Shown: one piece after another, positions 9,035 through 49,566 of the stretch | Numbering within the stretch: position 1 is the stretch's first letter | Layout: each line of letters starts with the position of its first letter | Source of the DNA: an uncultured Caulobacterales bacterium | Lineage (GTDB): Bacteria > Pseudomonadota > Alphaproteobacteria > Caulobacterales > CAYPOX01 | Assembly: GCA_964412525.1 (NCBI GenBank) | Contig: CAYPOX010000002.1 | Location: forward strand, 27-64,026 | Direction: 5' to 3' | DNA length: 64,000 nucleotides | Made by a program: the position numbers and the translations under genes | The notes under the pieces: generated by a model | The model's database searches: none | What the model was told of the DNA's origin: nothing | What the model saw: only the letters and a program-made list of their open reading frames with translations

Positions 9035-9035
9035 G

Positions 9036-24445: not shown

Positions 24446-26341
24446 TTAGATCAAGGCGTCCGTTTCGGCATCGAGCGAACGCGCGCCCGCATCCGCCTCG
24501 GCGAGGCCCGGCCGGCCTTCGGCGAGACCCGATTCCAAGAAATGCTGGAGATAGGTGATCAGGCCGAGATTGGACTCAGGGCCGGCGTTCACGAAATCGG
24601 CGACGTCCGGATTCTCCGCGGCGTAGAAGACCGGATCAAAGCCGACGAGCCCGTCCGTCGTCCGGTCGCCCGCCAGAATCTCCGCCTCGCCGAATTGCAG
24701 ATAGTGGACGAACGGGTCGACCGGTTGGCCGTTCGTGTCCACGGCGGCGGCGATGTCCGGATTGGCGGCGCGGTAGGCCGCCGGGTCGAAAAAGGGATTG
24801 GGGTTGAACTGCCGGCCGCCCGAACCGTCCGGCGTGTCGAGGGCGGATCCTTCACGGACGTAGTGCTCGAGCGCGGTGTCGTAGGTGACGACGTCGAGGC
24901 TCGTTTGGGTCGAGGCGTCCTGCTCCAGATAAAAGGCCTCGTCGAACATCGCATCGACGGACAGAAGCGGCGAATATTCGCGCCCCTCCTCCAAGCCGAC
25001 ATCGAACCAATGGGCGAAGCCGTCCAGAGCCGTCGTCACCCCGGCCGCCGCAAGATCCGCGTTGCCGCCGCGGCCGAGATAGAACGCTTGATCGAAGAGG
25101 GCGACCTCGAATTCCCGCAGATCATCCGCTACGAACACCACCTGCTCCCAAGCACCCAACTCTTCCAAGAAGGTGATGCGAAGGCGCAGATCGCCTGCGG
25201 TCAGATCCGCGCCGCTCGGCATCAAGCCGCTCGGCACGTCGACGATCTGGTCCCAAGCATCGTCGCCATTAAGTTCGAAATAGAACCGAGGCGCCTGGCC
25301 GAGCCCGTCCGGCCCGGCCGCCGGATCGATCTCCACGATCGCAGCGTAAGGACTTGGCGCTTGCGCCGGATCGACGGTTCCGAGCGCCGTGGACGTCAAT
25401 GTCTGAGGCTCCTGATCGCTGCGCGCCAGAATCGCGTCCTCGGCGCCAAAATCAAACCAAGTCGCGATCCGATCGATCGCGGGCGCGTCTGTCGGGGTCA
25501 ACGCCCCGTCCACCAGCAAAAGATCCGGCCCCTCGTCGCCAAACAGGCTGAGCGGTCCGGCGAACCCCTCCAGACTGACCAGATCAAGCCCTTCCTGGGC
25601 GATCACCTGCACGCCCCCGAGCCCGGCGTCCGGGCCAAGCTGAACGAGGTCGTTGCCGCCCGTGCCGGTCAGACCGCCGGCGCGCAATCCGTCTTGGGCG
25701 ACGTCCGCGGTGGTGAGGACCGGCGCATTGTCGCCGGCGTTCAACACGCCTCCGGCCTGGGGCGCGAGCGCCAACACCAATTGGTAGGCGCCGCCTTGGG
25801 GATCGAAGAAAAGCTCGGCCTGCAAGGTCTCCGCCGTCACGTCCGCGCCCACCCGAAAGGGCTGATCCGGAAAGATCACGCGATAATCCCAGATCGTATC
25901 GCCCGTCGCCTCCACGAACAGAATGGACAAGGGCTCCGGATCGAGCTCCGGAAAGACGCCGCGGGCCACGCCGACGTCATAAGGCGCGGCCGCAGCGGTC
26001 TCCGACACGTCGACCGCGCGGAGATCGCCCGGCTCCGCCGGCAAGACCACGATCAACTCATCCAAGGCGCTGAAACTCGGCAACAGCGCGTCGCCCGCGC
26101 CGAACGTCCCGGACGCGCCGTCCAGAGGCGCATCGCCCACGCCCACGCCGAAGGTGTCCGCGCCGGGGCCGCCATAAGCGACCGTCGGGCTTTGCCCAAG
26201 GCCGACGATGAGATCGTCGCCGTCGCCGCCGATCAACTGATTGACCCCGGTTCCGAGCGGAGTGAAGTCAAACAAATCGTCGCCGCCGCCCCCGAGGGCG
26301 AATTCGGTCTCCGCGGCGTTTTGTTCGCTGAAAGATCGCAT
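24446..26341 (-). CDS. secreted repeat protein with N-terminal RTX-like Gly/Asp motifs and a C-terminal four-repeat 'FDxxxYLxxNPDV' module
   Basis: 631 aa; AAGGAG lies 7 nt before the ATG; no signal peptide. N-terminus GGGGDDLFDF...LIGGDGDDLIVGLG...YGGPGADTFGVG. C-terminus FDPAAYRAANPDIAAAV..HYLQFGEAE and FDPVFYAAENPDVADFV..LQHFLESGLAEGRPG. The 745-aa plus ORF is its shadow. Confidence 0.75.
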   Translation of the reverse strand: MRSFSEQNAAETEFALGGGGDDLFDFTPLGTGVNQLIGGDGDDLIVGLGQSPTVAYGGPGADTFGVGVGDAPLDGASGTFGAGDALLPSFSALDELIVVLPAEPGDLRAVDVSETAAAAPYDVGVARGVFPELDPEPLSILFVEATGDTIWDYRVIFPDQPFRVGADVTAETLQAELFFDPQGGAYQLVLALAPQAGGVLNAGDNAPVLTTADVAQDGLRAGGLTGTGGNDLVQLGPDAGLGGVQVIAQEGLDLVSLEGFAGPLSLFGDEGPDLLLVDGALTPTDAPAIDRIATWFDFGAEDAILARSDQEPQTLTSTALGTVDPAQAPSPYAAIVEIDPAAGPDGLGQAPRFYFELNGDDAWDQIVDVPSGLMPSGADLTAGDLRLRITFLEELGAWEQVVFVADDLREFEVALFDQAFYLGRGGNADLAAAGVTTALDGFAHWFDVGLEEGREYSPLLSVDAMFDEAFYLEQDASTQTSLDVVTYDTALEHYVREGSALDTPDGSGGRQFNPNPFFDPAAYRAANPDIAAAVDTNGQPVDPFVHYLQFGEAEILAGDRTTDGLVGFDPVFYAAENPDVADFVNAGPESNLGLITYLQHFLESGLAEGRPGLAEADAGARSLDAETDALI

Positions 26342-26505: not shown

Positions 26506-27003
26506 TCAGCTCGAGAGCATGGGCGCGCGGGTCCAGACCTCCGCGCCCAAAGTGCGCCCTTTCACTGTCGACCAGGCGCCGGCCATGCGGTCGTCTCCCG
26601 TCACCTCGAACAGGGCCGCGCCGCCATTGAACGCGATCGCCAGCGCCTTGGCGGAGGCGACCCCCAAGCCTTGATAGCTTTGGCCCTTCATGGCGCCGCT
26701 CTCTATGCGCCAATGCACGGCGTAGACATGGCCGGCAGGCCGGATGTCCACGGCCCCGGCGTAACGGGCACCGTTGGGCGCGAAGCCTTCGATCCGCCAC
26801 CGGCCGATCAGATCGACCCGCGGCGCCGGTTCGGGCGCCGGCGCGGGGGTCGGGCGTTTGCGGAACCAGCCGGCGGCGCGCCGCCAGAGGTTATGGATCA
26901 GACGGAGCGGATCACGCGGGGCGGCCGCGGAGTCGCGGCGAAGGGTCGTCGTCGTCATGTCGTGTCGTCGTTCGGACGGATCAGGGGCGGCGCGCGGGAT
27001 CAT
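26506..27003 (-). CDS. hypothetical protein, translationally coupled to the cadherin-like gene
   Basis: 165 aa. Its ATG (27003-27001) overlaps the upstream TGA (27002-27000) as ATGA. The C-terminal ~100 aa look beta-rich (GRWRIEGFAPNGARYAGAVDIRPAGHVYAVHWRIESG...). No family recognised. Confidence 0.5.
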   Translation of the reverse strand: MIPRAAPDPSERRHDMTTTTLRRDSAAAPRDPLRLIHNLWRRAAGWFRKRPTPAPAPEPAPRVDLIGRWRIEGFAPNGARYAGAVDIRPAGHVYAVHWRIESGAMKGQSYQGLGVASAKALAIAFNGGAALFEVTGDDRMAGAWSTVKGRTLGAEVWTRAPMLSS

Positions 27004-30000
27004 GCGATCGCATCAATCGGCAGGCCGAAAAAGGCGACCCCATCGTCGGCGAGGCCGTCGGCGACGCCCGCATCCCGCGCCTCTTCGCCGGGCGCATAGG
27101 TCAGATCCCCGGTGATCGGATCGCGCAGCCGGAAGACCGGCACGGCCCCGGCCGTCTCCTCCAGAACGCCGCCAAAGCCGACGCCCTCAAACCGGGCTTG
27201 GCCGAACAACGCGTCGCGCTCATCGGGATCGTCGGTGAACACATAGCTGCCGGTAGTCGGATCGAAGAGACGAAAGACAGGCACGCTGTCTTCCAGGCCG
27301 ACGCGGTCGCTTGGGAACACTTGGATCGCGAAATCGGGATCGGCGAGGAAATCCGGCGAGGCGTCAAGCGCGGCCCGCTCGCTGGCGGTCGCGGTCAAGA
27401 GTTCGCCGCCGGCGGCGAGATTGTCAAAGGCGGTGAGCGTCACCGGCGCAGTGAGATCGAAGAGCGGCTCGCCCTCCACGTCATAGACGTAGAAGGCGAT
27501 CCCTTCGAAGCGGAAGGAGGCGGGATCGAAGAATTGCGAGGTGCCGACCGCGGCGGTGGTGTAGAAATGGGAGCCGCGATTGAGATCGAAAAAGCGCACA
27601 ATGGCCGTCGCGCCGTCAAAGGCCTCCGGGAAGGCGGAGAACACCGCCGCCTCGAATTGGAAGCGCGGATCGGCGATCACCGCGTCCCGCTCGACCGGAT
27701 CGATCGTGAAGAAATGGGTTCCGGTTTCAAGATTGACGAAGCGGAAGACGAGTTCGGAGCCGCCGAGGCCGGCGTCCGCGGCGTTCAGGGTCAACAGATC
27801 GAGGGGCTCGTCGTCGAAGGCCGGCGATGCGTCGAGCGCCGCTTGCTCCTCCGGGCTGACGGAGAACAGGAAGTCGCTCGCCGACGGATTGAAATAGCCC
27901 GGCACGATCACCGCCCGATCCTCCACCGTGCGCGGATCGGTTTCGTCTCCCACAAGGTCGAGAATTTCGATCGTCAGCGCGCGGCTGTCGCCGGTCACCG
28001 CGCCGTCCCGCGCCGCGACCGTGATCTCATAGAAATTGTCGCCATTCGCGTCCGCAGGCGCTTCGAAATCGGCGCGCGCGGCGAAGATCAGATCGCCGGT
28101 GAGCGGATCTACGAGAAAATCCGCCGCATCCGGCCCGCCCAAAATGACGAGGTCCGGATCATCGCCCGGATCGGGATCAAAGGCGGAGACCGCCGCCACG
28201 CCGCGGCTGTTTTCAAGCACGCGAATGATCCCGTCCTCGCCGGTCTGACCCAGTTCCGGATCGACGATCACGGTCGGCAGATCGTCCACGCCCGTGACCG
28301 TGACCTGAATCTCGGACTCCGCGACCCCGCCTCGGGCGTCCAGGACGGCGTAGGTCGCGACGTCGAGCGCGCTTTCGCCCGGCAGGAGCACGTCAAAGGC
28401 CCCGTTCGGGTCATAGGCGAAGAAGCCGTCATTGCCGACCGTGAGGATCGCGCCGGACGGCAAGATGAGAGGCGCGTCCACGGCCTCGGCGAGACCGTCC
28501 ACGGCGGTCACCACGAAGGGATCGCCGTTCGGATCGAAATCGTTGAAGAAGGCGTTGCCGTTCAAGACTTGGTCCGCCGGCGTCGTCACGTCGTCGACGC
28601 GCGCGGTCGGCGGATCGTTCTCCGCCACCTGGATCGTCACCGGGCCGGTGGAGAGGCCTTGGGGATCCTTCAACTCCACGTCGAAGCTGCCCATCCGCAT
28701 TTGCGGATTGGCGAGCACGAAGATGATCTCTCCCGCGGCGATCTCGGAGGAGGCGATCTCGATCGCGACCGCTTCGGGATCGGAGGTGCGCGCGAGAAAG
28801 CCGTTGGTGGCGTTCGAGACGAAGAAGATGAGCTCGTCCTGGGTCGCGTCCGGATCAACGCCGATCAGATCCTCGGCCGTGACCGGCACCACCGGCACGC
28901 TTTCGATCGTGACGGTGCGATCGCCTTCGATGACGGGGACGTCGTTCTCGCCTTCGATCGTCAGCGTCACACGGCCGAAGCTGATCCGATCGGTCGTGTC
29001 GATGATCGCGTATTGGAAGCTGTCTTCGGCGGTCTCTCCGTCAAGGAGGAAATCAAAGGCGTCGAGAGGATCGTAGAAAACGTCGCCGTCCTGGACGAGC
29101 TGCACGAAGGCGCCGGAATTCAGATCTGCGTCCAGGCGCAATTCCGGTTCGAACACCAGCGTGCCGATCCCATCCTTGAAGGGCCCGAACAGATCGACCC
29201 GGATGAAGTCGCCGTCGACGTCGAAATCGTTTTCAAGCACGTCGAGGGAGAGGATTTCATTCTCCCCCACCCGGCCGTCTTCGCCCACCTCGACCACATC
29301 GTCGATCGCCGTCGGATCGTCCTCCACCGGCGTCACGGTGAGATTGATCGTGATTTGGGCGGTCTCCTGATCGTCGGTGACCTCGACGATCAGGGAGTCG
29401 CTGCCGAAGAAATCCGGGTTCGGCGTGTAGAGGAGCTTCGTCGTCGGGGTGACGGGGTCGATCTCGGTCGTCGGCTCGAGCTTCGCCGCCTCAACAGTCT
29501 CCCGCACATTAAGAAAGAGATTGGTCTCGCCGTTTGCGGGCGCCGTCACGATCCGCCAGGACAAGCGGTCTCCGTCATCCGGATCGAACACCTCAAGCAA
29601 GGAGGTTAGATCGACATCGACGGAGTCCTCCGGGAGGGTTAGCGACGCCGTCGCGCCTTCCGTAAAGACCGGCGCGTCGTTCACCGGCAGGATGGTGACG
29701 TCGACTTTGAGGGTCGCGGTCAGCCCCGCGCTGTCCGTGGCGCGGATGACGAAAACGTCCGTCCCGGTCTCGTTCAAATTTGGTATATATTCGATGCCTG
29801 TCGGCGTGTTGCCGACTTTGTCGATGCTTGGAACGACGAAGGGGACCCCCTCCACCACGCCGCGGGTCGGGAGAAGATTCGCGTCGGTCTCGTCGAAATC
29901 CCAGCGGATATTTTCGCCAAGATCGCGATCGTCGACGAGCAGCAAGGCGTCAAGATCGAAGGGCGTGTCCTCCGTCACCTCGATCGCAATCTCCGTGCGT

Positions 30001-31370
30001 TCGTCGAAATCGGGCGGCGATCCGCCGACGGGCGGCGCATCCGCCACGCCGGCGATCTCGATGGTGACGACCGACGTGTCCTTGTCGCCAAAGGCGTCGA
30101 CGATCGTGACCTCAAAAGTGTCGATTCCAGGCGCGCCGCCCTCGACGAGGAAATCGAACTTCGCGTTCGGATCGTAGATGAGCGTTTGCGTGTCCTTGTC
30201 GAACAGAACCGCGCCTTTGGTTCCAGCCGTCGACACGCTGTCGATCACAAGATCGCCGCGCGGACCATCGATGTCGGAATCATTCCCAAGAATGGGCTCG
30301 TAAAGATTGTTCGTCCGTTCAATCTCCGAGCCGGCGAAGACATCATCAGCCGCCGTCGGCGCGTCGTTCTGGCCGGTGACGGTGACGAGCACCGCGCCGG
30401 TCGTTTGCTCGCCGTCGCCATTGCGCGCGGTGAAGGGAACACGGTCCGTCGCCGTTTGACCCTCCGCGAGGGTCTCGAAACCGCCGGCCGGATCGTAGCT
30501 CAAAATCCCCTTGTCAGCGTCGAAGATCGCCGTTCCCACCAAATTCGGCGCATCGAGCTCAAACTCAAAGATTTCATAGGATTCTGGAACGCCGTCAGGA
30601 TCCGAGACAACCGCAAGCACTTCATTCAACGTGATCGTCGCCGCAGGACCGTCTTCCTTGGCGCTGAGCGGCGCCTCGCCCGCCACCAGCGGATCGTTGA
30701 CGCCGATCAAGCGTATGACGCTGGTGACCTCGCTGACGCCGCCGACGCCGTCGGAGATCTCGACCGTGACGGAGTCGAAGAATTCGTCGCCCACGCGGAC
30801 GAAGTTGAACTGATCGTTCGGGTCGTAAACATAGGTCCCGTCAGCCTGGACGGTGACGAGGGCGCCGGACGCGAGCGTCGTCTCCACGCCCACCGCGGCC
30901 GCCGATCCCTCCACCTTGCTGACAAAGATGATCTCGCCGTCGGCGTCGAAAGCGTCTTCGAGGAGTTCGCTCGCGACGGGCGGGCCGTCTTCAGTGGTCG
31001 AGACCTCCTCGTCCGGCGCAAAGGGCGCGTCGTTCTGGCCAGTGATGGTGACGACCACCAAGGCGGTCGCTTGGTTCCCGTCTTCATCCTCAATCGTGTA
31101 AGCGAAGGAGTCCGTCGCCGTTTCACCCTCGGCCAGGAACTCGAATAGGCCACGTCCGTCATAAACGACCGTGTCGGCGTCCGGATCATAAACGGCCGTT
31201 CCGATCGTGTCGGAATCGTCCACCCCGACAATGACCAGCGGGGAGCCTTCGGCGTCGCTGTCGTTCAAGATCAGCGTTTTCGAGCCGATGGTGAGGCGGG
31301 CGTTGTCCTCAAGCAGGCTCGCGGCGTCGTCCAAAGCGATCGGCGGCGTCGTCATAAAGGCATCCGTCAT
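27000..31370 (-). CDS. 1456-aa cadherin-like/VCBS-repeat surface protein with C-terminal DUF5648-like repeats
   Basis: About ten ~100-aa units end in the cadherin-like/VCBS signature (VVVTITGQNDAPFA, VLVTVTGQNDAPTA, VDVTILPVNDAPVF, IQVTVTGVDDLPTV...). The last ~250 aa carry four repeats such as VPVFRLFDPTTGSYVFTDDPDERDALF. No Sec signal (MTDAFMTTPPIALDD). Confidence 0.8.
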   Translation of the reverse strand: MTDAFMTTPPIALDDAASLLEDNARLTIGSKTLILNDSDAEGSPLVIVGVDDSDTIGTAVYDPDADTVVYDGRGLFEFLAEGETATDSFAYTIEDEDGNQATALVVVTITGQNDAPFAPDEEVSTTEDGPPVASELLEDAFDADGEIIFVSKVEGSAAAVGVETTLASGALVTVQADGTYVYDPNDQFNFVRVGDEFFDSVTVEISDGVGGVSEVTSVIRLIGVNDPLVAGEAPLSAKEDGPAATITLNEVLAVVSDPDGVPESYEIFEFELDAPNLVGTAIFDADKGILSYDPAGGFETLAEGQTATDRVPFTARNGDGEQTTGAVLVTVTGQNDAPTAADDVFAGSEIERTNNLYEPILGNDSDIDGPRGDLVIDSVSTAGTKGAVLFDKDTQTLIYDPNAKFDFLVEGGAPGIDTFEVTIVDAFGDKDTSVVTIEIAGVADAPPVGGSPPDFDERTEIAIEVTEDTPFDLDALLLVDDRDLGENIRWDFDETDANLLPTRGVVEGVPFVVPSIDKVGNTPTGIEYIPNLNETGTDVFVIRATDSAGLTATLKVDVTILPVNDAPVFTEGATASLTLPEDSVDVDLTSLLEVFDPDDGDRLSWRIVTAPANGETNLFLNVRETVEAAKLEPTTEIDPVTPTTKLLYTPNPDFFGSDSLIVEVTDDQETAQITINLTVTPVEDDPTAIDDVVEVGEDGRVGENEILSLDVLENDFDVDGDFIRVDLFGPFKDGIGTLVFEPELRLDADLNSGAFVQLVQDGDVFYDPLDAFDFLLDGETAEDSFQYAIIDTTDRISFGRVTLTIEGENDVPVIEGDRTVTIESVPVVPVTAEDLIGVDPDATQDELIFFVSNATNGFLARTSDPEAVAIEIASSEIAAGEIIFVLANPQMRMGSFDVELKDPQGLSTGPVTIQVAENDPPTARVDDVTTPADQVLNGNAFFNDFDPNGDPFVVTAVDGLAEAVDAPLILPSGAILTVGNDGFFAYDPNGAFDVLLPGESALDVATYAVLDARGGVAESEIQVTVTGVDDLPTVIVDPELGQTGEDGIIRVLENSRGVAAVSAFDPDPGDDPDLVILGGPDAADFLVDPLTGDLIFAARADFEAPADANGDNFYEITVAARDGAVTGDSRALTIEILDLVGDETDPRTVEDRAVIVPGYFNPSASDFLFSVSPEEQAALDASPAFDDEPLDLLTLNAADAGLGGSELVFRFVNLETGTHFFTIDPVERDAVIADPRFQFEAAVFSAFPEAFDGATAIVRFFDLNRGSHFYTTAAVGTSQFFDPASFRFEGIAFYVYDVEGEPLFDLTAPVTLTAFDNLAAGGELLTATASERAALDASPDFLADPDFAIQVFPSDRVGLEDSVPVFRLFDPTTGSYVFTDDPDERDALFGQARFEGVGFGGVLEETAGAVPVFRLRDPITGDLTYAPGEEARDAGVADGLADDGVAFFGLPIDAIA

Positions 31371-31426: not shown

Positions 31427-32965
31427 TCACTCCGTGAAGGCGGTCTCCAAAGGCAAACCGAACGCCTTCATCGCCGGTGCGGTGTTGACGAGGAAGCGAT
31501 CGGCCTGCTTGCGCAACTCGGCCTTCGCCGCGTCGTCATTCTCAGCAGGCTTGCCTTCAATCATCACATTGCGTCCTTTGGATCTCAGATCCGCCAACAC
31601 GCGATCGACGATGCCGTCCGCCGACCCGTCGCCGAAATGCTTGGCGTAGATCTGATCCATGGCGCTCATCGCGAACCCGGCGCCCAAGCCGGAGGCGAGC
31701 ACGTGGACGGTGCGTTCCGTCAAAGTGCGGTCCAAGACCTCGCGGTTGAACGGCTTCGGCGGCGCGCCATCCTTCCGCATCACCGGCGACGCCTGGCCAG
31801 AGATCAAAAGCGCTTCGACGGCGCTGTAAGCCTTCTCAAAGGTGTCGGCCCCGGATGCGGCATGGAGTTCGCGGATCGTCTTCGGGCCGTCCGCCAGGGC
31901 CTCGACCGCGGCGCGCACGACCGGCGTGTCGAATTTGGCCTGCCGTCCCATGAGCTGGGCTTCGAACTTAATCCCCTCGCCGCCGACCCGTAGCGCGATC
32001 ACGCTGTCGGCGAGAACGTCCCGCTGTTCATTGCGGCTCAATCGGCGACCGCCGCGGGTGTAAATGTCGCGCCGGAACTGGGCGTTGGTGCAGTAATCGC
32101 GCGCCAGCTCCCGCAACTCCATAGTGGGCAGCTCGTTGACAAGTTGGAGCTGATCCTGTGTCAACGTGTATCGGAAATTGTTTTCCGCAAACGTCGCCGA
32201 CGCCGCGAAGGTGAGCTTCGCCTCCCCCATCTCCGCCATCGCTTGGGTGACGTAGAGCGGATACCAGGCCTGATTGAGATACTCCTGGGCGAGATAATTC
32301 ACGGGCTTTTTCTCGAGCCCTTCCATCATCTTCGACATGCGCGCATTGGTGGCGAAAGCGACGGCCTTGGCGTCCTTCAGCTTCTCGCCGAATTGGATCG
32401 CCTGGCGCACCTTATGGGTGGATTGGCCCGGCACGATCGCCGCATATTCGGAAAACAGCCGCTGGAGCGGCGCGATCGTCGCCCAACCCGGCAGGGTGTT
32501 GTAGCTCACATAAACGAGCCCCCCCGGCGCCAAGAACTTCCGGATGAACTCCACCATCTCCCGGCGGTTCTCCGGCGTGATCCAGGAATAGACGCCATGG
32601 GTCACGATATAGTCGAACTGCGGAAAATCCGCATCGACCGCATCGGCGAAGGCCATTTCGTGAAACGCGACATTGCCGATATCGCCCTCCCGCGCGAGCC
32701 GTCGCGCATTGGAGATGTGCACGGGCATGAAATCGATCCCATGCACCTCCGCCTCCGGATTGGCCGCGGCGAAGACATTGGTGGACAGGCCGTTGCCGCA
32801 ACCAAGTTCGCAATAGCGAAAGCGCGCGCCGTCATGCTCCGGCGGCGCGACGCCGCGCGTGACGGCGGCGAAGTTCAAATGCGCCGGGCCGAGCTCTTGG
32901 AAAAATTGGGTCGTGTATTCCTGATCGACAACATACCCGTCTGACCAATCGGACATGGGTGACAT
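31427..32965 (-). CDS. SAM-dependent methyltransferase of the 'methyltransferase regulatory domain' (PKMT-like) family
   Basis: Track ORF 31427..33007; ATG 32965 follows AGGAAAGGA. RYCELGCGNGLSTNVF (motif I) and FDYIVTHGVYSWITPENRREMVEFIRKFLAPGGLVYVSYNTLPGW, which I recognise as the hallmark of this ~520-560-aa family. Confidence 0.8.
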   Translation of the reverse strand: MSPMSDWSDGYVVDQEYTTQFFQELGPAHLNFAAVTRGVAPPEHDGARFRYCELGCGNGLSTNVFAAANPEAEVHGIDFMPVHISNARRLAREGDIGNVAFHEMAFADAVDADFPQFDYIVTHGVYSWITPENRREMVEFIRKFLAPGGLVYVSYNTLPGWATIAPLQRLFSEYAAIVPGQSTHKVRQAIQFGEKLKDAKAVAFATNARMSKMMEGLEKKPVNYLAQEYLNQAWYPLYVTQAMAEMGEAKLTFAASATFAENNFRYTLTQDQLQLVNELPTMELRELARDYCTNAQFRRDIYTRGGRRLSRNEQRDVLADSVIALRVGGEGIKFEAQLMGRQAKFDTPVVRAAVEALADGPKTIRELHAASGADTFEKAYSAVEALLISGQASPVMRKDGAPPKPFNREVLDRTLTERTVHVLASGLGAGFAMSAMDQIYAKHFGDGSADGIVDRVLADLRSKGRNVMIEGKPAENDDAAKAELRKQADRFLVNTAPAMKAFGLPLETAFTE

Positions 32966-33133
32966 TCCTTTCCTTAAAGGCGAACGCGCGGGCGCGCCGA
33001 CGCGCACGAGCTTTCGTCTCGCTTGAACCAGGCTTGCGCGCGCCGCGCAACACCCCTCGCCGCCGGACGGCGGCCCAAAAGAAAAGGGCGGGGCCGAAGC
33101 CCCGCCCTGAAGGCGTGATCCGACTGGATCCGA

Positions 33134-36100
33134 TTAGAAGATGAAATCGGCCGTCGAGAAGCCGAGCGACGTCTCTGTAGAATTCAAATCGCCGTCGACC
33201 ACGATATCGAACGCCAAGTCCGCGGCATCGAGATTGCCATCATTATTGACGTCGACAAAAACGCGGAAGACGTCGTCCAGCGTGGCGTCGCCAACAAAGT
33301 CCGCAACCGCGTCGTTGAATTCGACCTTGACGCCATCATCCGTGCCGCCGTCATCGAAGAAGTTAGCTCCCCCAGCGGCCGCCGTGAAAACGCCAACCGA
33401 CGCGACCGTCCCGTTCACCGTCTGATTGGTGAGGCTCAAATTCGACAAATTGATCCGGTCGGACCCATCTTCGAAGTTGATAATCACGTCGCCCGTGCCG
33501 CCGGTGGCATTGGCTTCCGTCGACAAGATCGTGCCTGCGCCATCGTCGAAGAAGAACGTGTCCGCCGACGCGCCGCCGTCCAACACGTTCTGCGTGCCAG
33601 CCGCGCCAGAGCTGATCGTGTCCGCGAAGCCCGTGCCGATCACGTCGACAAAGCCCTCAAGACCGTCATCGTCCGCGCCGCCAACGAAGCCGTCAGTGTC
33701 GCCGAAGCCGCCGCCGGAAATGACAAGCTTCGTGTCGTCGCCGGACGTATCGTTGAACAGGTTCACCGTCACGCTCGTGGTGCCCAGCGAAAGGTCGAGA
33801 ACCTCATCGCCCGTACCCGAAGCCTTATCCTGCTCGCCGTCCGGAGAGACGCGGAACGTGTCAACACCGCCAGCCGTGAGGGTGATGATGTCTTCACCAC
33901 CGCCGTCGACAACAATGTTGTCGTCCGTTGAGTCAGCGACCTTATCGTCGCCGTCGCCGAGAATGATATTCTCGAGTTTGTTCGCTCCGAACGCCAGATT
34001 GCCCGCCGCTTCGATGTCGGTCGCGCCCGCCACCGTGCCGGCCGCGAGGTCGACGGTCAGATCCTCATTGTCTGCGGAAAGATCCGCCGTATCGCCGAGA
34101 ACCTCATTGCCTTCCGCATCCGCCGACAGATCGACCGACGTTTCGTCCACGCCGTCATCCGACAGAATGATCAGATCATCGCCGTCGCCGCCAAGGATCG
34201 TGTCCGCACCGTCACCATCACGGATCGTGTCCTCGCCAGCGCCGCCATCAATCGTGTCATCGCCGGCGCCGCCCTCGATAATGTCATCTCCGGCGAGGCC
34301 CGTCAGCGTGTCGCCTCCTTCGCCGCCATAGAGTTCATCGTCTTGGAGGCCGCCGGTGAGCACGTCGTCGCCCTTCAGACCAAAGAAGATCTGCGGGGCG
34401 GACCCGCCAACGAACGTGTCGACTTGCGTCGCGTCGTCCGAACCGACGATGACCTCAATGTTGAGGATCGAGCCGTCGTCGATCGTAAACGCTCCTGAGA
34501 AATCCGTGTCGAAGTTGTCGGAGGAACCCACCGACAAATCGATCAGCAGGGCCTTGCCGACGACATCTCGAAGATCGAGGACGTCGAAATTGCCCGCGTT
34601 GCCGTTGAACACGTCGTCGCCGCCCAGATCATCGGTGAAGACCAGGAAGATGTCGTTCCCATCGCCGCCATTCGCCTGATCTTCGCCTTTGCCGCCAACA
34701 AGAACGTCGATCCCCTCGCCGCCAAACAACACGTCGTCTTCATCGTCGCCGATCAAAACGTCGTTTCCAGCGCCGCCGTCCAACGTGTCCGTGCCCGTGC
34801 CAGTGGTCAAAAGCTGGACCTTGTTTGAGCCGGTCGTCGGAAGACCAAGATCCACGACCAAATCGACATCGAACGGATCCGGATTGCCGTCGCGGTCCAG
34901 GTCAATCGTCGTCGTGGAAAGCACCCGGTCGCCCGTCTTCAGATCGATCGCGCTTAGGGCCAAAGCGACCTCGGCGTCGTCGATCTGCAGGCGGTTACCG
35001 CCAATCAAGATGTCGTCGCCGCCGCCGCCCGTAAACGAGTCGTTGCCGCCATCGCCGAGGAACAGGTTCTCGCCGGCAGTGCCCGCTTCCGTGTCGCCGT
35101 TCACCGTGCCGACGAAAATGATGTCGCCGATCGGCTCGAACTGAATCTCGCCAAGTTGGCCGCCATAATCGACGCGCAAACCGTTGGTGAAGAGATCCGC
35201 TTCGTTGAGATCGAATGCGAGATCCGTGTCTTCGTCAAAATCACCGTTACGGTCGAGGTCGACGAAAATCCGGAAATTGTTGATATCGCCGATCTCTGTG
35301 CCACCGAGCTGCTCCGCCACTATGACGACATCGCCGCCAAAGATTGTGGAGTTGAAGAAGTCGGCCTTGCTGTCCGTGGTGCCGGTCGTCGAACTGACGC
35401 GGACATCAAGAACCTGAAGGGCGTCATCAATGCCGTCGCCATTCTCCGCGCCCTTGCCGCCATCAAAGGCGGCGTCATCGTCGCCCGGCGATTCATTGCC
35501 TTTAACGCCATCGCCATCGACGTCGAAGATCGCGTCGCCACCGGTGTTCTCAAGGCCGCCAGCCTTGTTCTCGATCGAAAAATCGGAAATGTCGATCAGA
35601 TCGTTGCCCGCAGTAAAGCCGACGATCGTGTCGATGCCTTCCGTCGTCGAGTCGAGCGCACCGCCCGGGTTGTTGTCGTCGAACACCAACTCCGCACGAC
35701 CGTCATTAAACTCGAGATCGACCAGCGGGTCGACCGAGTCGGTGAACTCGATCCGGATCACCAAGTCCCGAGCCGAAATCGTGCCGGCGACGTCGTTGAG
35801 CTCCGAAACGAGCACCAAGGTGTCACCGGAGTCGATCGCCCCATTATTGTTGGTGTTTTCATAGTAGAAGATACCGACATCGTTGTCGCTATCTTTGACA
35901 ACCAAGAAGATATCATCGCCATTATCAAGATCAGAGATCACGCCGAACTTGGCTGCAGCATCCCCAAGATCAAAATCTTCAATCTTAATGCCGATATTGT
36001 CTTCCAAGAAGAACACGCCGCCTTCATCAACATCAAAGCTGTTGATCGAACCGGCGTTGATCACGCCATTCGTGGTCAACACGTTCGTCAGTCCGCCCGA

Positions 36101-39100
36101 GAACACCACAAAGTCTTCCGAAGTCGTGAAGTTCGAAACCGAGTCCGCCGAACCCGTGCCGACTGAAAGGCCGCCACCGGTCGGAACCGTGTTGCCGTCC
36201 GACACAGACGTGTAGATCACCCGATCGACCAGCTCGCCCGCAGGCGCGCCACTATTGGCAAGGTCGATGACGTCGCCGCCTGCTTGGCCGGTGATCTCGT
36301 CCTCGCCTTGGCCAGCCACGATCGTGTCCGCACCGTCGCCGCCGAGCACAACGTCGTCGCCCTCGAAGGCGTTGATAACGTTCACTGCCGACGAGCCGGT
36401 GATCACGTCGTTATATTTTGTGGCGTTGACGTCCTCGAAGCTGACGAACGTCGTGGTGTCGAGATTGCCGTCTTGGACGACGCCAGTGACCAAGTTGATG
36501 AAAATTTCTTCGACGCCGTCATCGTCGAAGGTGTCGTCGTCGGTCGCGCTGTCCTTGAACGGATCGATGTTGAACGACAGGTCCGCGCCGCCATTACGAA
36601 GATCGATCAAGTCCGACTTACCCGTACCGATGAAGGTGATGTCGCCTTCATTCGCCACGTAATCAACGCCGCCGAGATTGCCGGTCGTGATCTTCGCGTA
36701 TTGCTCGGCGTTCGTGTCGAAATCATTGACAAACCGACCAAGCGGATCGGCGTCGTCATTCGAGTTGCCGGTTAGATCGCCCGCGCCGTCGGATTCTTGG
36801 AATTCGCCCAAGAAAACCGTAATCGGCGCGCCGTCATTGGTGTTGTCGCCATCGTCCGAAAAGGTGTTGCCGGAGTAGTCGAGCACGTTCGCGCCGCCAT
36901 TCAGGAAGAAGTCCTGATTACGGTCCGCCTCATTGTTAGTGAGACGGATCGTGTTGGCGAAATCGGAGCCGATCACGCGATCGAATTCGAAGTTGCCGCT
37001 GTCCTCGATGAACGTAACAAACAGCGTGTCGTCAGCGCCCGTACCCTCTTTAACCGTGACGGTCTCGAAGGACGTGTCCGCACTGTCCTCCTCGCCGTTT
37101 TCGTCCGCGACGTCGCCCGCATTGAACTGAACGGTCAGATTCTCGTCCGTGGACGAAAGGTCGATCGTGTTGACGCCGGTGCCGCCAACATACTGCTCAG
37201 CTCCGCCATCCTTGAAGAGATCCACACGATCCTTCGCGCTGCCGTTCAAGTTGTTATCGTCACCTTCATCAACGAGCACCCAATCGACGTCGGCGATAAA
37301 GTCCGCCTCTTCATCTACCGAGGTGATCACGAAGTTCAGATCCGAGCCCTCATTACGATAATCGCCGATATCCGTGCCGCCGGCCAGAGAGAATTGAAGC
37401 AGCACGACATTGTTCGCCGCCACTTCGCCGGCCACGTCGATCTTGCCGTCGCCGTCGTCGGCGATGCCGAACTCGGTCGTGAAGCCCAAAGCGGCTTCAA
37501 GGAAGCCAACCTTCAGACCCGCATCGTCGTCTTGGTTCACCTGATTGTCCGCCAAGATGACGCGGTCGTTGCCGGACGAACCCGTGACGCGCTCGAACTG
37601 AGTGATGCCGTCGATTTCAACGGTCTCATTGCCGAGGGTCGAGTCGTTCACCGTCACGCCGCCGGCCTCGAGAGTGTTGCCCTCCAGGATCGTCAGCGAG
37701 CTGACCGCGCCGTCCACGCCGCCCTTGGTGTCATCCAAGGCGACCGGGCCGCCGAAGTTGACCACCGCGCCGCCGAGATTGGAGACGTCAAGGACGTCTT
37801 GCCCAAAACGAACGTCCGCATCGTCGTCGTCGTCTAGATCAGTGAAGTCGATGCCGGTCGCCGCCAAGGTGGCGTCAAAGCGCTCGACATCCACCAACGT
37901 ATCGTCGGACCCGCCAGCGTAGCTGATCACATCCGTTTCCGTCGCCGTTTCAACGGTGAAGGTGATCGTCGGCCGCACCGAAAGATCGTCTTCCGCGTCG
38001 CCCGCGACGCCGTCGCCGTCATTGTCCGCCGTGGACGTCACGTTGGAGTGGTCGACGGTGACCTTGTCGTCGTTCTCATTGCGGCCCGTGATGTCGCCGT
38101 CCGTCTGATCGCCGAGGGACAGCGTGTTGGCCACGCCGAGCTGCGACTGGTCGAGATAAACAAGATCGTTGGCTTTGCCGGTGATGATGTTTTCCGCACC
38201 GAGCACAAGCACCAGTCCGCCCAGGTCGACTTCATCCTTATCCGTAAAGATGTCGTCATTGGTCAGCGCGTCGTTGTCGTTGACGTCCTTGTCATAGGTG
38301 ACGCCCGCATCGCCGGCGCCGTTGGTCTCCGTCGTCAGGCGGATGTTCAGACCTTCGAAGTCCGGTTGGTTGTCGCCGCCCGCGTTCACATTGTCGTCCG
38401 GACCGATGACGTTGTCGCCCGCACGGTCCGCCACGATGTCGTCGGACACCGCCGACAGATCGTAGGTGTCGTTCTTCGTGTTGGACAGCGTACGCAACGT
38501 CTCAACGTTGAGGAGGTTCGTCCGGTACTCGATCTCCGCATCCGCATCGACATTCACGTTCACCACGGTCGTTTGATCAGCCGCCAAGAGGCCCGGCGCG
38601 ACGATCGTGAACTCCGCGAAGTCGCCGAACAGCTGCTCGTCGAACACGACATAGTCGTCGTCGCCGCCGCCGTCGATCGTGTCGGCGCCAATCAAGAGAA
38701 CGGACTTCGTGCCGTAAATAAGGTCGTCGCCCGATCCGGCGTTGATGACGTCGTCAACGTCCGAACCGACGATCAGATCGTCGCCGTTCTTGCCGTTGGT
38801 GTTCTCGTCAAAGCCCGTGATCGTGCCTTTGAACAGCGAACCGTCCGCACGGTCTACAAGAATGCCGGCCACGGAGTCTTCGTCCTCGAACGTGTCGTTC
38901 GTGCCCGCGCCCACGAAGAGAATGTCCTCTTTCGTGAAACCGCCATCCGGATCGTTGCGCACGTCGAAGCCGAACAAATCGACCGCCACGCCGACCGCAT
39001 CGTCCTGACCCGTATTGTCGAAGATCTTGACGAACTGCTCGCTCGCCGAGTCCACGTCGAGGAAGGCGACGTGACGGTTGGCGCCGCCGAACTGCGCGTC

Positions 39101-42100: not shown

Positions 42101-42778
42101 GCCGATCTGAATGAAGTGCTGCAGGCCGGTTTGCAGGCCGAGCGTGCCGAATTCCGGCGCCGCGTCGACGAAAGCCGCCACGTCCGGGTTGTTGTTCAAA
42201 TAGAAGACCGGATCAAAGCCTGGCGTGAAGCGCGCGTCGACACCCGGGGTGAAGACGTTGTCGCCGTTATTGTCCAGGAACGCCGGGCGCAGGCCTTGGC
42301 GGATTTCGCTCTCGCCGAATTCGAAATAGTGCAGATAGGCGTTGACGCCGGCCGCTGCGACATCCGGGTTCGCGGCGAGATAGGCCGCGGTGTCGAAGAA
42401 CTGGTTCGGGTCGGCTTGCGGATCGGAACCGTCAAGGGCTTGCTGATCGTCGAGGGAGTCGAGGTCGTTGCCGAAGCGCACATAGTGTTCAAAGGCCGAG
42501 CCCACTTGGCCGGCGTCGATGGCGTCTTGCGCCGCCGGGTTGTTCGCCAGGTAGCTCGCGTCGTCGAACAGATCGTCGTTCGCCGGCTCCAGGAACGGCG
42601 AGAAGGGACGGCCTTCGTCATTGCCGAAAGCGATGAAGTGATCGAAGGCGTCGATGCGCACCTCTTCGACCGTCGTGCCGGGCTCCGCGTTTACGAAGAA
42701 CGTTTCGCGGAGATCCGCGTTCGGGCCGACCGAGAGATAAAAGGTCGAGTCGAAGATCAAGATGTCGAAGTCAGTCAT
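33134..42778 (-). CDS. giant (3214-aa) acidic RTX-type repeat protein, probable T1SS adhesin
   Basis: Track ORF 33134..42847; ATG 42778 follows AGAGGGGA. No signal peptide. N-terminal four-repeat FDxxxYLxxNPDV module. Scattered and dense GGxGxD nonapeptides ([78 protein letters not shown]). Ends ...[19 protein letters not shown]. Confidence 0.9.
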   Translation of the reverse strand: [3214 protein letters not shown]

Positions 42779-43067
42779 CGGGTGTCCCCTCTTTGCAAAC
42801 CGATCAGCGAGCACAGCGCGCGCGCACGGACGCCGCACGCGCCGCACACTTGCCTACTCGGGTTGCGTAACTAACAAACACCCGTGAGTCTTCCAACCCG
42901 CCCAAGGCGCGATTGTGAATCTTTCTTTAGATTTTTTTTAACCAGATCCGCCCGGAACGGCGGCCTTGCTGAATTTGGATTCTAGCGCGATGGTTAGGAA
43001 GTTGCTATATAAGGACGGATGGCGACGCGGTCGCGGCCGCGCGCGGAGGCATTAGGACGAATCGCTC

Positions 43068-45118: not shown

Positions 45119-45237
45119 ATAGGGTGCGGCGTCTTTGACGGGCGCGCATGGATGCGCGTATGGCTGGCGCCGTCCGCGGAGCCGGCCCGGAGCGACCCGC
45201 GCCGAACGACGGAACGACCATTGAGGAACGAATTCTG

Positions 45238-48600: not shown

Positions 48601-49566
48601 ATGACCATTTGGCCGCTCGGATTCCGTCTCGACGACGGCGCGCTCGACAAGGCGCGCGCCGAGCCGGCCCGCATCCTGCGGGTCGAGGGCTGGGCCGCCG
48701 GACCGCCGCCGCGCGTGCGGTTGCGGCCGGCCGCCGAGGCGCTTGCTCTGTCGCCGACCCTCGCCCTCAAGACCTGCCGGCCAGACGTGGCGCGCGACCA
48801 TGAGGGGCTCGATTCCTGGTGCGGCGTGGCGCTTGAATGGCGCCGGCCGCCGCCGCTCGCCGACGGCGCGGCTCTCGTGCTTCCGGACGGCCGGCAGGCG
48901 CCTTTGCCGCCCGGCGCGCGCGCCGTGCTGAACGGTCCGGATCTTCCTTATGCGGGCCTGCTGGACGATCCCGCGCCATGGGGCCGGGACCAGCTTTACG
49001 GCCAGGGACCGCCAGATCCCGGCGTGGCGTCGGACTTCATCGATCTTGCGCGCAAGCTCACGCCGCCGGTGCTCGACGTGGGATGCGGCGCGGGACCTCT
49101 GGTGGCGGCGCTCCGCGCGGCCGGCGTCGACGCCTATGGGGTCGAGTTGGATCAGCCGCGGATCCGCGAGGCGCTTCTGCCCGAGGCGCGCCCCTATGTG
49201 ACCCTGATCGATCCGGATCGGCCCCTGCCCTTCGCCGACAAGACCTTTGGCGGCGTTCTCGCCTTCGAGGTCTTGGAGCATGTGCCCGATTGGCGGCGGT
49301 TGGTCACGGAGATGCTGCGGCTGGCGCGCCGCGCCGTCGCCGTATCCGTACCGGATATGAGCGCGGTGCCCCGCGGCCATCCCCATGGCGCCGTGCCCTG
49401 GCATATTTTAGACAGCGACCATGTGCATTTTTTCACGCCCCCCGCCCTTGCGGCGCCGTTTCGCGCGCAGGGTTGCGCGCTCGAATGGCGGGCTTTGAAT
49501 GCGGAACGACTGGAAGGCGGCGTTTGGCCGGGCAGTCTCGGTCTTTTGGCGCGTTTGCCCGGTTGA
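48601..49566 (+). CDS. class I SAM methyltransferase with ~150-aa N-terminal beta-rich domain (paralog 1)
   Basis: PPVLDVGCGAGPLVAALRAAGVDAYGVELD (motif I), FGGVLAFEVLEHVPDW. The N-terminal LRVEGWAAG...CRPDVARDH...ALEWRRPPP domain is shared with 49968..50984. Confidence 0.75.
   Translation: MTIWPLGFRLDDGALDKARAEPARILRVEGWAAGPPPRVRLRPAAEALALSPTLALKTCRPDVARDHEGLDSWCGVALEWRRPPPLADGAALVLPDGRQAPLPPGARAVLNGPDLPYAGLLDDPAPWGRDQLYGQGPPDPGVASDFIDLARKLTPPVLDVGCGAGPLVAALRAAGVDAYGVELDQPRIREALLPEARPYVTLIDPDRPLPFADKTFGGVLAFEVLEHVPDWRRLVTEMLRLARRAVAVSVPDMSAVPRGHPHGAVPWHILDSDHVHFFTPPALAAPFRAQGCALEWRALNAERLEGGVWPGSLGLLARLPG

Follow-up and report, generated by a model that had tools for sequence, protein, structure and literature searches.

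To our knowledge, the only bacterial surface proteins known to carry multiple methylated lysines are rickettsial OmpB and AtaA of Acinetobacter, both of them type V autotransporters. HlyC-type acyltransferases are cytoplasmic enzymes encoded in cargo/T1SS clusters that modify lysines of RTX proteins before T1SS export. In the case of FliB, the gene of the enzyme adjoins that of its substrate. Salmonella FliB multiply methylates flagellin lysines and alters surface hydrophobicity and adhesion (PMC11784438, PMC10450907). The Rickettsia enzymes PKMT1 (RpPKMT1, 5DNK/5DO0) and PKMT2 (RtPKMT2, 5DOO/5DPL) represent the 'OM PKMT R' subfamily. Their substrates are OmpB and further proteins of the outer membrane (PMC8232902). 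The first-pass annotation of the DNA discussed here regarded these two as the only characterised members of their family. This is outdated: KmtA from Acinetobacter sp. Tol 5, described in 2024 by Inoue, Yoshimoto and Hori as a member of the 'OM PKMT A' subfamily, acts on AtaA, a lysine-rich trimeric autotransporter adhesin with 234 lysines in 3630 aa, of which it methylates more than 130 (PMC11784438).

A gene for a PKMT/KmtA-family SAM-dependent protein methyltransferase is found in the window, i.e. the whole stretch of 64,000 nucleotides from an uncultured Caulobacterales bacterium that was analysed. It is located on the minus strand (31427..32965). The ORF opens with GTG 33007 and closes with the stop at 31427. 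The previously chosen start, ATG 32965, yields 512 aa. ATG 32956 (MSDWSDGY...) is the likelier start: an AGGA Shine-Dalgarno sequence is located about 10 nt upstream, and the database protein P0001, which is 100% identical to the window methyltransferase, comprises 509 aa. The GC content at the three codon positions (0.63/0.44/0.80) indicates that the ORF is a real gene. No signal peptide was found in the protein.

The proposed affiliation with the PKMT/regulatory-domain family was borne out by both the HMM search and the comparison with Rickettsia PKMT1/2. PF10119 (MethyTransf_Reg) matches residues 223-304 with an E value of 1.4e-20 and 74.3 bits, far over the cut-off of 25.5, and the match covers profile positions 3-84 of 84. 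Methyltransf_12 (E 1.2e-16), Methyltransf_31, _25 and _11 all match residues 50-174. These Pfam matches are far above chance level. NCBIfam holds no specific model for the protein; every match there is far under its cut-off. The SAM motif ELGCGNG, which is of the GxGxG type, comprises residues 53-59 and an Arg-rich motif, FRRDIYTRGGRR, residues 297-308. The two peptides RYCELGCGNGLS and FDYIVTHGVYSWITPENRREMVEFIRKFLAPGGLVYVSYNTLPGW emphasised in the first-pass annotation are both present in the translation. The best PDB sequence matches obtained with phmmer are PKMT1 (5dnk, 6e-28) and PKMT2 (5doo, 4e-25), with alignments to the Rickettsia PKMTs that cover only residues 21-320.

At the level of the fold, the match is full-length. 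An AF2 model with a pLDDT of 95.4 and a pTM of 0.94 was compared by Foldseek with 5dnk, 5do0, 5dpl and 5doo, which yielded TM scores of 0.67-0.72 over 524-538 columns and 17-18% identity to PKMT1/2 over the whole structural alignment. The full four-domain PKMT architecture composed of AdoMet-binding, dimerization, middle and C-terminal domains is kept. The three best structural neighbours are protein-lysine methyltransferases. The next fold match after PKMT1/2 is Rv2067c from Mycobacterium tuberculosis (8HKR), with TM scores of 0.50 when normalised to the query and 0.64 when normalised to the target. Rv2067c resembles the window enzyme in fold and in the predicted protein-lysine methyltransferase activity. 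Unlike the window enzyme, it has about 384 aa, is itself secreted, methylates host histone H3K79 and lacks an adhesin context. An HlyC/TAAT acyltransferase fold was considered and rejected, since all sequence and fold matches are class I methyltransferases.

Residues D78 and H123, which are invariant in an alignment of 69 homologs, align to Asp102 and His146 of RpPKMT1. These two residues hydrogen-bond AdoMet (PMC11784438). RpPKMT1 Leu103 and Ile130, which affect the Km for OmpB, align to F79 and F106. Therefore, substrate recognition differs from that of PKMT. As KmtA does not carry Leu103 and Ile130 either, they mark OmpB recognition and not family membership. The window enzyme probably belongs to the KmtA-like 'A' subfamily, to judge by its low identity to PKMT1/2 and by the genera of its homologs: those of 80 homolog loci, among them Azospirillum, Microvirga, Methylobacterium, Duganella, Undibacterium, Rubrivivax, Piscirickettsia, Synechocystis and Geomonas, agree with the Cluster A list in Table S5 of the KmtA paper (PMC11784438). 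Membership of Cluster A was defined there by CLANS with BLAST P below 1e-60, and is judged here by genera and by identity to PKMT1/2.

The methyltransferase gene is framed by two genes for large proteins that are, as annotated before, located on the same minus strand at distances of 168 nt and 56 nt. Their earlier description as giant RTX and cadherin-like proteins is corroborated by the Pfam matches. The upstream gene (33134..42847, minus strand) encodes a protein of 3237 aa when translated from GTG 42847; alternatively, translation could begin at Met24 (about 42778). This giant protein contains HemolysinCabind repeats, with RTX nonapeptides near residues 2690-2890, and ends with a T1SS-signal-like tail (...GFSTADFIF). 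With both RTX repeats and a putative C-terminal T1SS signal, it is the predicted main cargo and substrate. The downstream gene (27000..31370, minus strand), which begins 56 nt 3' of the methyltransferase stop, encodes a cadherin-like/Big_9 repeat protein of 1456 aa. Pfam and NCBIfam matches were obtained for this protein, the Pfam domains being Big_9, Cadherin_4, Cadherin_5, Cadherin_3, Cadherin and a C-terminal DUF5648. Neither a signal peptide nor RTX repeats were found in it, and we infer that it is also exported by the T1SS. In a relative with an 82%-identical enzyme (locus L001), the start codon of the cadherin-like gene corresponds to Met6 (window 31355). A start at this position would widen the gap to the methyltransferase gene to about 71 nt.

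A strong intrinsic-terminator hairpin (33085..33108, minus strand; 10 bp stem with 9 GC pairs, TTCG loop, T-tract) is located 26 nt past the stop codon of the giant gene and is supported by RNA folding of the spacer between the giant and the methyltransferase gene. An equivalent hairpin with a changed stem sequence follows the giant ortholog in L001 (9457-9484). Owing to this hairpin, the giant gene and the methyltransferase gene either lie in separate transcription units or are joined by attenuated read-through only. Between the methyltransferase and the cadherin-like gene no terminator was found. The two genes are therefore probably co-transcribed.

Further genes of the window belong to the same surroundings. 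The start of a gene for a 165-aa protein (26506..27003, minus strand; weak LIC10280-family match) overlaps the stop of the cadherin-like gene by 4 nt, which suggests translational coupling. A Gly/Asp-rich 631-aa protein with three N-terminal GGxGxD motifs and zero lysines (24446..26341, minus strand) shares FDPxxY...NPDV repeat modules with the N-terminus of the giant RTX protein, and similar modules are present in the enzyme-adjacent RTX proteins of three homolog loci (L074, L020, L086). Divergent from the giant gene, a 543-aa RTX protein with a HemolysinCabind match and one lysine is encoded (43487..45118, plus strand), whose N-terminal domain recurs in three other enzyme-linked loci (L019, L079, L087). 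It is followed on the plus strand by genes for a T1SS ABC permease/ATPase of the PrtD/RsaD type (45148..47010; TIGR01842, 717.5 bits versus a cut-off of 510.15) and a T1SS HlyD-family periplasmic adaptor (47090..48544; TIGR01843, 385 bits versus 208.65). Taken together, a genuine T1SS is encoded in the window, along with at least two RTX proteins whose C-termini are T1SS-like. A T1SS outer membrane (OEP) component was not identified among the scanned window ORFs. Directly 3' of the T1SS genes, two paralogous class I methyltransferases of 321 and 338 aa are encoded (48601..50984, plus strand), which are 46% identical to each other and belong to a different family than the PKMT-like enzyme. At the other enzyme loci, no homologs of the 165-aa protein or of the 321- and 338-aa methyltransferases were found, and the cadherin-like protein was found only in L001. 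This set of genes is lineage-specific.

The linkage of the enzyme to secretion systems was surveyed at 80 species-level homolog loci. All counts are raw and stand without a matched random-gene control; the ORF maps of high-GC loci were filtered by codon-position GC. T1SS ABC and HlyD-family adaptor genes are present in 12 of the 80 loci. In eight of these, the ABC gene is orthologous to that of the window (41-48% identity) and lies at a distance of 145-1375 nt from the methyltransferase gene, always in the same orientation. In about ten further loci, a large RTX/DUF4214/RsaA-like protein adjoins the homolog. The enzyme-adjacent large proteins contain DUF4214 or RsaA_NTD together with RTX repeats and T1SS-like tails. 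The arrangement large RTX cargo, methyltransferase, T1SS is shared by loci from different orders of Alpha- and Betaproteobacteria and by one Binatia genome. L001 keeps the order giant gene, methyltransferase gene, cadherin-like gene; in this one close relative only, the cadherin-like neighbour is kept beside the enzyme. Among the six nearest relatives with 45-47% identity, three (P0008, P0017, P0035) are preceded by an RTX protein of 2311-2606 aa and followed by ABC-MFP-OMP genes, and at the other three (P0004, P0007, P0013) no secretion genes were found nearby. When metagenomes were scanned for relatives between these identities, one 2-kb fragment only was obtained, so that the gap between 82% and 47% identity remains. 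In RefSeq annotations, plasmids of Ruegeria TM1040 and of Rhodospirillum rubrum carry the same module. Several T1SS operons consist of cargo, methyltransferase and T1SS genes alone, without glycan genes. In the 41 loci that lack a secretion context, by comparison, no family dominates or is similarly recurrent among the immediate neighbours (TPR being the most frequent, 5 of 81 proteins).

The enzyme family is known, whereas its secretion context is new. As the gene is flanked by adhesin genes and relatives in many other bacteria are found in the same kind of secretion operon, the enzyme probably methylates these adhesins before export. The fold, the SAM site and the OM PKMT family of the window enzyme are established. 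We consider it reasonably probable that it is a cytoplasmic SAM-dependent protein-lysine N-methyltransferase which serves a plasmid-borne T1SS adhesin module as accessory enzyme and would methylate the flanking proteins before export. The methyltransferase would bind its acidic cargo in the cytoplasm, prior to folding, and move methyl groups onto the epsilon-amino groups of the few lysines present, lysine being the presumed target residue. The cargo would be the 3237-aa RTX protein encoded upstream and probably also the co-transcribed 1456-aa cadherin-like protein. Subsequently, the PrtD-type ABC/HlyD system (45148-48544) would export the methylated proteins. Adhesion or surface display might be tuned in this way, as by KmtA in the case of AtaA, or lysines might be protected. 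The recurrent RTX-methyltransferase-T1SS order raises considerably the likelihood of a dedicated adhesin methyltransferase as proposed in the first-pass annotation.

The principle would resemble that of HlyC, which acylates RTX toxins, or of FliB, which methylates flagellin. With HlyC, the window enzyme would share an analogous working only: the folds are unrelated, and SAM-dependent methylation stands against acyl-ACP-dependent acylation. FliB belongs to a different protein family, and its substrate leaves via the flagellar type III system. Like PKMT1/2, the window enzyme comprises a class I domain, PF10119 and the middle and C-terminal domains, and the AdoMet-contacting Asp and His are kept. 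In both cases the enzyme is cytoplasmic and the known (PKMT) or predicted (window) substrates are large exported surface proteins. In contrast to the type V autotransporters methylated in Rickettsia, the neighbours in the window are predicted T1SS cargo. The window gene is embedded among these putative cargo genes, whereas a search of the literature found no reported enzyme-substrate gene linkage for rickettsial PKMTs and OmpB or for KmtA and AtaA. With KmtA, the window enzyme would share a fibrous adhesin of several thousand residues as target. AtaA, however, is a Lys-rich autotransporter, whereas the putative T1SS proteins that flank the window enzyme are Lys-poor, and the KmtA paper gives no T1SS or T6SS linkage (PMC11784438).

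The caution expressed in the first-pass annotation that both neighbours contain few lysines holds: the giant RTX protein has 47 in 3237 aa (1.45%) and the cadherin-like protein 14 in 1456 aa (0.96%). Between the giant protein and its ortholog in L001, lysine is the least conserved residue (23% versus a mean of 55%), which provides no evidence for fixed target sites, and no conserved target site is visible in this comparison. In two enzyme-linked loci, a nearby RTX protein contains only one (L064) or four lysines (L010); in both, it is not directly beside the enzyme or is encoded on the other strand. Many enzyme-adjacent cargo proteins share a C-terminal motif, D(F/I)VVKLTG, with a conserved lysine. 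This residue was rejected as target, because it is replaced by E, H or R or is absent in four loci (L036, L010, L085, L064) and because the motif is absent from the giant protein of the window.

Three other explanations have to be weighed. The enzyme might act in trans on surface or secreted proteins in general, and its position between adhesin genes would then be incidental or reflect mere co-regulation on a plasmid for surface structures. Rickettsial PKMTs are reported to modify several proteins of the outer membrane, namely OmpB, OmpA, Sca1 and a porin. A secretion context is lacking in about half of the 80 homolog loci and in three of the six relatives with 45-47% identity. In addition, the terminator behind the giant gene shows that this gene and the methyltransferase gene are not a simple bicistron. 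However, the tight same-strand placement by cargo and T1SS genes recurs across orders with otherwise differing flanks, and a high specificity for a single adhesin has been reported for KmtA. We regard a general enzyme as unlikely.

Alternatively, the methyltransferase might modify a component of the secretion machinery or regulate secretion, with the cargo left unmodified. T6SS machines are regulated post-translationally. Type VI secretion clusters enclose a methyltransferase homolog in 12 of the 80 loci, where it sits within the core cluster between tssG and clpV; on Aureimonas pAU20a, it adjoins a protein kinase. Moreover, in the T1SS loci the enzyme is equally close to the ABC gene and the cargo. 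By contrast, every member of the family characterised to date acts on surface proteins that are exported, and the T1SS genes of the window are divergent and located beyond the giant gene, 12 kb from the methyltransferase gene, which is flanked by putative cargo genes on both sides. The T6SS-linked enzymes form a clade of their own in an NJ tree, and may therefore differ in function. We regard a machinery target as quite improbable.

An equally improbable non-protein substrate, e.g. an O-antigen or anchoring-polysaccharide sugar from neighbouring glycosyltransferase genes, would accord with the glycan genes common in homolog loci, with the double GT2 (58930-61182), the ABC-2 exporter (61265-62236) and the two further methyltransferases of the window, with the homolog on Azospirillum plasmids, which overlaps a GT4 gene within an LPS-type cluster, and with a GT between RTX gene and enzyme in L064, but is opposed by the retention of the whole four-domain PKMT architecture beyond the Rossmann core (TM about 0.71), by three top structural neighbours that all methylate protein lysines, by the minimal cargo, enzyme and T1SS operons devoid of any glycan genes and by the T6SS-embedded clade without glycan context.

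Methylation of the flanking adhesins before export, the reading preferred here, may apply beyond this locus. Literature searches found no described T1SS cargo methylation and no T6SS-embedded lysine methyltransferase, and nothing relevant that joins lysine methylation or methyltransferases with T1SS, RTX, S-layer, T6SS or PF10119. Tentatively, since we give this generalisation somewhat less than even chances, KmtA-type PKMTs may act in many bacteria as dedicated cargo-modifying accessory enzymes of secretion systems. They could be the methyl-lysine counterpart of HlyC for T1SS RTX adhesins and S-layer-like proteins, including the giant adhesins of the window, with a separate clade in T6SS clusters. 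Tractable minimal-operon loci composed of cargo, methyltransferase and ABC-MFP-OMP genes are found on pTM2 of Ruegeria sp. TM1040, on the plasmid of Rhodospirillum rubrum ATCC 11170 and in Duganella. A conserved operon link between enzyme and T1SS cargo would point to testable substrates in hundreds of bacteria, both environmental and plant-associated. Multiple lysine methylation would thereby reach RTX adhesins and S-layer-like proteins, which are drivers of biofilm formation, and the link would provide T1SS biology with a second pre-export modification of cargo beside the acylation of toxins.

The methyltransferase ORF extends on the minus strand from a GTG at 33007 to 31427. The first-pass annotation had started the gene at the ATG at 32965, which yields 512 aa including both peptides quoted there, and had placed it 168 nt after the stop of the giant RTX gene and 56 nt before the start of the cadherin-like ORF; the peptides and both distances were confirmed. 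The codon-position GC (0.63/0.44/0.80) is the coding pattern of the surrounding 60–70% GC replicon, and the gene is real. ATG 32956 is the likelier start, because AGGA is located ~10 nt upstream and the database protein P0001, 100% identical to the window enzyme, comprises 509 aa.

The window enzyme is very probably a protein methyltransferase of the protein-lysine methyltransferase (PKMT) family. Pfam assigns a class I methyltransferase domain to residues ~50–175 and MethyTransf_Reg (PF10119) to residues 223–304 (E 1.4e-20, 74 bits vs. a cut-off of 25.5), as anticipated from the sequence; no NCBIfam model specific to the enzyme was found. Searched against the entire PDB, the sequence matches Rickettsia prowazekii PKMT1 best (5dnk, E 6e-28), followed by R. 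typhi PKMT2 (5doo, E 4e-25); these are the relatives proposed earlier. These alignments span residues 21–320 and are followed by generic methyltransferases at E 2e-7 or weaker. An AlphaFold2 model based on 69 homologs (pLDDT 95.4, pTM 0.94) was compared with the PDB using Foldseek. Eight PKMT1/PKMT2 chains rank first (E 1e-25 to 6e-23; TM 0.67–0.72 over 524–538 columns, i.e. full length), and the next match is Mycobacterium tuberculosis Rv2067c, a histone-lysine methyltransferase. As the fold match covers the full length, the poorly aligning C-terminal 190 residues are predicted to adopt PKMT architecture, too.

In RpPKMT1, Asp102 and His146 hydrogen-bond AdoMet (PMC11784438). They align to D78 and H123 of the window enzyme, which are invariant in two alignments of 24 and 69 homologs. 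Leu103 and Ile130 of RpPKMT1 influence the Km for OmpB, and neither is conserved in KmtA from Acinetobacter (PMC11784438); the window enzyme has F79 and F106 instead. Its FRRD motif is invariant in the homolog alignment, and an Arg-rich stretch is present at residues 297–308. The KmtA authors locate the predicted substrate cleft in this region (PMC11784438), which could fit very acidic cargo. Since direct reading of the sequence revealed no N-terminal signal peptide and a SAM-dependent enzyme needs the cytoplasm, the protein should be cytoplasmic.

Methylation by PKMT1 and PKMT2 targets OmpB as well as further outer membrane proteins (PMC8232902). The earlier statement that they are the sole characterised members is outdated: KmtA from Acinetobacter sp. 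Tol 5 acts on AtaA, a 3630-aa trimeric autotransporter adhesin with 234 lysines, of which it methylates >130 (Inoue, Yoshimoto and Hori, J Bacteriol 2024, PMC11784438). The family was divided into subfamilies A (KmtA-like) and R (Rickettsia-like), and Cluster A genera are given in Table S5 of the same paper. Azospirillum, Microvirga, Methylobacterium, Aureimonas, Chelatococcus, Novosphingobium, Duganella, Undibacterium, Rubrivivax, Piscirickettsia, Azonexus, Synechocystis and Geomonas occur both there and among our homolog loci. Because of this coincidence of genera, the window enzyme probably belongs to subfamily A. PMC11784438 is silent on gene neighbourhood and on type I and type VI secretion systems (T1SS, T6SS); it states that species without trimeric autotransporters 'may methylate other OM proteins'.

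The giant RTX protein (3237 aa, 33134–42847, −) carries HemolysinCabind repeats near residues 2690–2890 and ends in ...GFSTADFIF, a T1SS-type tail. The cadherin-like protein (1456 aa, 27000–31370, −) comprises Big_9 and Cadherin_4/5/3 repeats and a C-terminal DUF5648. A 165-aa gene overlaps its stop by 4 nt and is followed by a gene for a 631-aa Gly/Asp-rich protein (24446–26341, −). Divergent from the giant gene, a 543-aa RTX protein (43487–45118, +), a PrtD-type T1SS ABC transporter (TIGR01842, 717 bits vs. a cut-off of 510) and a T1SS HlyD adaptor (TIGR01843, 385 vs. 209 bits) are encoded. A strong, GC-rich terminator hairpin with a TTCG loop is located 3' of the giant gene (33108–33085, −), and no terminator was found between the methyltransferase and cadherin-like genes. 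Therefore, two transcription units are likely: one holds the giant gene by itself and may be read through, the other is an operon that joins the methyltransferase, cadherin-like and 165-aa genes. In L001, the locus of an 82%-identical relative, a hairpin with a differently composed stem is retained after the giant gene (9457–9484). The hairpin suggests that the structural gene is highly expressed, whereas read-through into the two genes behind it, methyltransferase and cadherin-like, is attenuated.

Further features of the window concern its replicon and additional modules. The adaptor gene is followed by two class I methyltransferase paralogs (48601–49566 and 49968–50984, both +), which are 46% identical, have N-terminal extensions of ~150 aa and show weak DVU_1556/MetW-like matches only; no homologs of them were found in the other methyltransferase loci. 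L019, L079 and Ruegeria pTM2 (L087, 5879–7573) also encode the N-terminal domain of the 543-aa RTX protein, in all three opposite in strand to the methyltransferase. DUF5648 also forms the C-terminus of an 885-aa 5'-nucleotidase-like protein (53067–55724, +) and may serve both proteins as a module for surface anchoring or export. The window probably belongs to a plasmid or chromid of a Rhodospirillales-like alphaproteobacterium, since it carries a ParA/VirC1-like gene (51241–51978, +) and a RepA (RepA_C) gene (56219–57157, −) whose region shares ~65% DNA identity with Azospirillum plasmid RepA genes. Many homolog modules are plasmid-borne, too (R. rubrum, Ruegeria TM1040, Azospirillum, Aureimonas). 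The adhesin/T1SS region has a GC content of 0.60–0.70, whereas positions 1–14000 are patchy (0.49–0.58 in several 2-kb windows, a 0.69 island at 10–12 kb), which suggests a mosaic replicon.

Among the proteins examined, the family comprises 860 members at E 1e-10 or better, and relatives are encoded in at least 581 stretches of species-representative genomes. L001 keeps the order giant RTX (at least 3144 aa, cut by the contig end), methyltransferase, cadherin-like gene. Three of six homologs at 45–47% identity display an RTX-methyltransferase-T1SS arrangement. In P0008, a gene for a 2311-aa DUF4214+RTX protein is followed by the methyltransferase, ABC, AprE-type adaptor (MFP) and outer membrane component (OEP) genes; in P0017, a 2606-aa RTX protein precedes the methyltransferase and a second PKMT-like paralog, with ABC, MFP and OEP further on; in P0035, a 2367-aa RTX protein precedes the methyltransferase, with two ABC genes, MFP and OEP further on. 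Unrelated gene contexts surround P0004, P0007 and P0013. In a wider survey of 80 genome loci (32–44% enzyme identity), T1SS ABC and HlyD genes lie within 10 kb of the enzyme gene in 12, a count that stands without a matched random-gene control. In eight of them (L029, L034, L036, L044, L049, L058, L078, L084), the ABC protein is 41–47% identical to that of the window, and its gene is always on the methyltransferase strand at a distance of 145–1375 nt. They come from an alphaproteobacterial MAG, Tabrizicola, several Burkholderiales and a Binatia genome. The adjoining large proteins combine an N-terminal DUF4214 with RTX repeats and tails of the T1SS-like kind; the Tabrizicola cargo begins with RsaA_NTD, which is found in the S-layer protein of Caulobacter. 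In several loci a gene for a TolC-like OEP is next. In ~10 more loci an RTX/DUF4214-type large protein adjoins the enzyme, with no T1SS genes in the fetched flank. Independent RefSeq annotation shows the module as well, on two plasmids: pTM2 of Ruegeria sp. TM1040 (DUF4214, a 1081-aa 'hemolysin-type calcium-binding region' protein, methyltransferase, DUF6447, T1SS ABC, HlyD, glycosyltransferases) and the 53.7-kb plasmid of Rhodospirillum rubrum ATCC 11170. Among the enzyme's immediate neighbours in the remaining 41 loci, no family recurs; TPR proteins are commonest (5 of 81). Close spacing, a shared strand and recurrence in different orders usually mark a functional operon link, and they argue for one here. 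T1SS/RTX-linked enzymes are scattered through the neighbour-joining (NJ) tree of the family and many members are unlinked; thus, the link is either old or was repeatedly gained. PKMT-like paralogs in tandem, reminiscent of the rickettsial PKMT1/PKMT2 pair, were observed in L092 (10001–13089; directly 3' of a 2606-aa RTX protein and 5' of T1SS genes), L075 and possibly L020. The two in L092 share 36% identity over 365 aa, and their C-terminal parts have diverged.

We propose that the cytoplasmic PKMT would methylate lysines of T1SS cargo ahead of export. In the window, this cargo would be the giant RTX protein, probably joined by the cadherin-like protein that is co-transcribed with the enzyme. 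That the enzyme acts on this flanking cargo is somewhat favoured; its target residue, substrates and physiological effect are inferred. HlyC, which acylates RTX toxins, and FliB, which methylates flagellin, serve solely as functional analogies. The first-pass caveat that both neighbours are Lys-poor holds and counts against the proposal: 47 of 3237 residues in the giant and 14 of 1456 in the cadherin-like protein are lysines, and two further candidate substrates, the 543-aa RTX and 631-aa proteins, contain one and none, respectively. Also unfavourable is that no residue of the giant protein is less conserved in its ortholog than Lys (23% vs. a mean of 55%; Arg 66%). Enzyme-linked cargo elsewhere contains 0.08% to 4% Lys. 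The RTX proteins of L064 and L010 have one and four lysines; there, the RTX gene is non-adjacent or on the opposite strand. In several S-layer-like cargo proteins, K far exceeds R despite high GC (Duganella 32 K/3 R, Ruegeria 35 K/2 R), which is compatible with lysine as the relevant basic residue and may simply be an S-layer trait. A general PKMT acting in trans, to be weighed against the operon link, is an unlikely alternative.

Still less probable is that the enzyme modifies or regulates the secretion machinery, as suggested by a T6SS-embedded clade. In 12 of the 80 loci (L025, 5699–15239; L018, L022, L026, L028, L032, L033, L035, L039, L071, L077, L082) the PKMT-like gene lies inside a T6SS core cluster with the order ImpE, TssE, TssF, TssG, methyltransferase, ClpV, Hcp. 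TssF is on the methyltransferase strand in all but L039. On pAU20a of Aureimonas sp. AU20 (L088, RefSeq), the methyltransferase gene and tssG share 4 nt, and the next gene encodes a protein kinase. Ten of the 12 enzymes (L018 and L077 were left out of the NJ tree) and that of pAU20a form one clade, in which the non-T6SS L023 is nested. A full-text literature search found no description of a T6SS-embedded lysine methyltransferase, although absence there is no proof of absence. Directly after the methyltransferase homolog in L085, an odd T6SS/T1SS chimera is encoded (4455–7811). This protein, 1119 aa long, joins six domains of the T6SS tube type (Hcp) to an RTX repeat, and its C-terminal tail is T1SS-like.

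A glycan or LPS substrate is as improbable as the machinery: glycosyltransferase neighbours are frequent and the enzyme gene overlaps a GT4 gene on Azospirillum plasmids, but several operons consist of cargo, methyltransferase and T1SS genes alone, which disfavours it. Large cytoplasmic glycosyltransferases are frequent in T1SS and methyltransferase loci (L029, 270–6845; L064, 8178–9983; L065, 3840–7982; L087, 2126–5670 and 18250–21025), e.g. a 2192-aa TPR+GT41+FkbM-methyltransferase protein ahead of ABC, HlyD and methyltransferase, or a GT1 between RTX cargo and methyltransferase. This hints that T1SS cargo of these bacteria may receive several modifications.

As the family is known and structurally characterised, the enzyme is not categorically new. 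New are the conserved association between KmtA-type PKMTs and T1SS cargo operons, of which the full-text search found no description (again no proof of absence), and the monophyletic enzyme group inside T6SS clusters. The T1SS link predicts a third substrate class for the family, RTX adhesins and S-layer-like proteins, which would leave the cell by a different secretion route.
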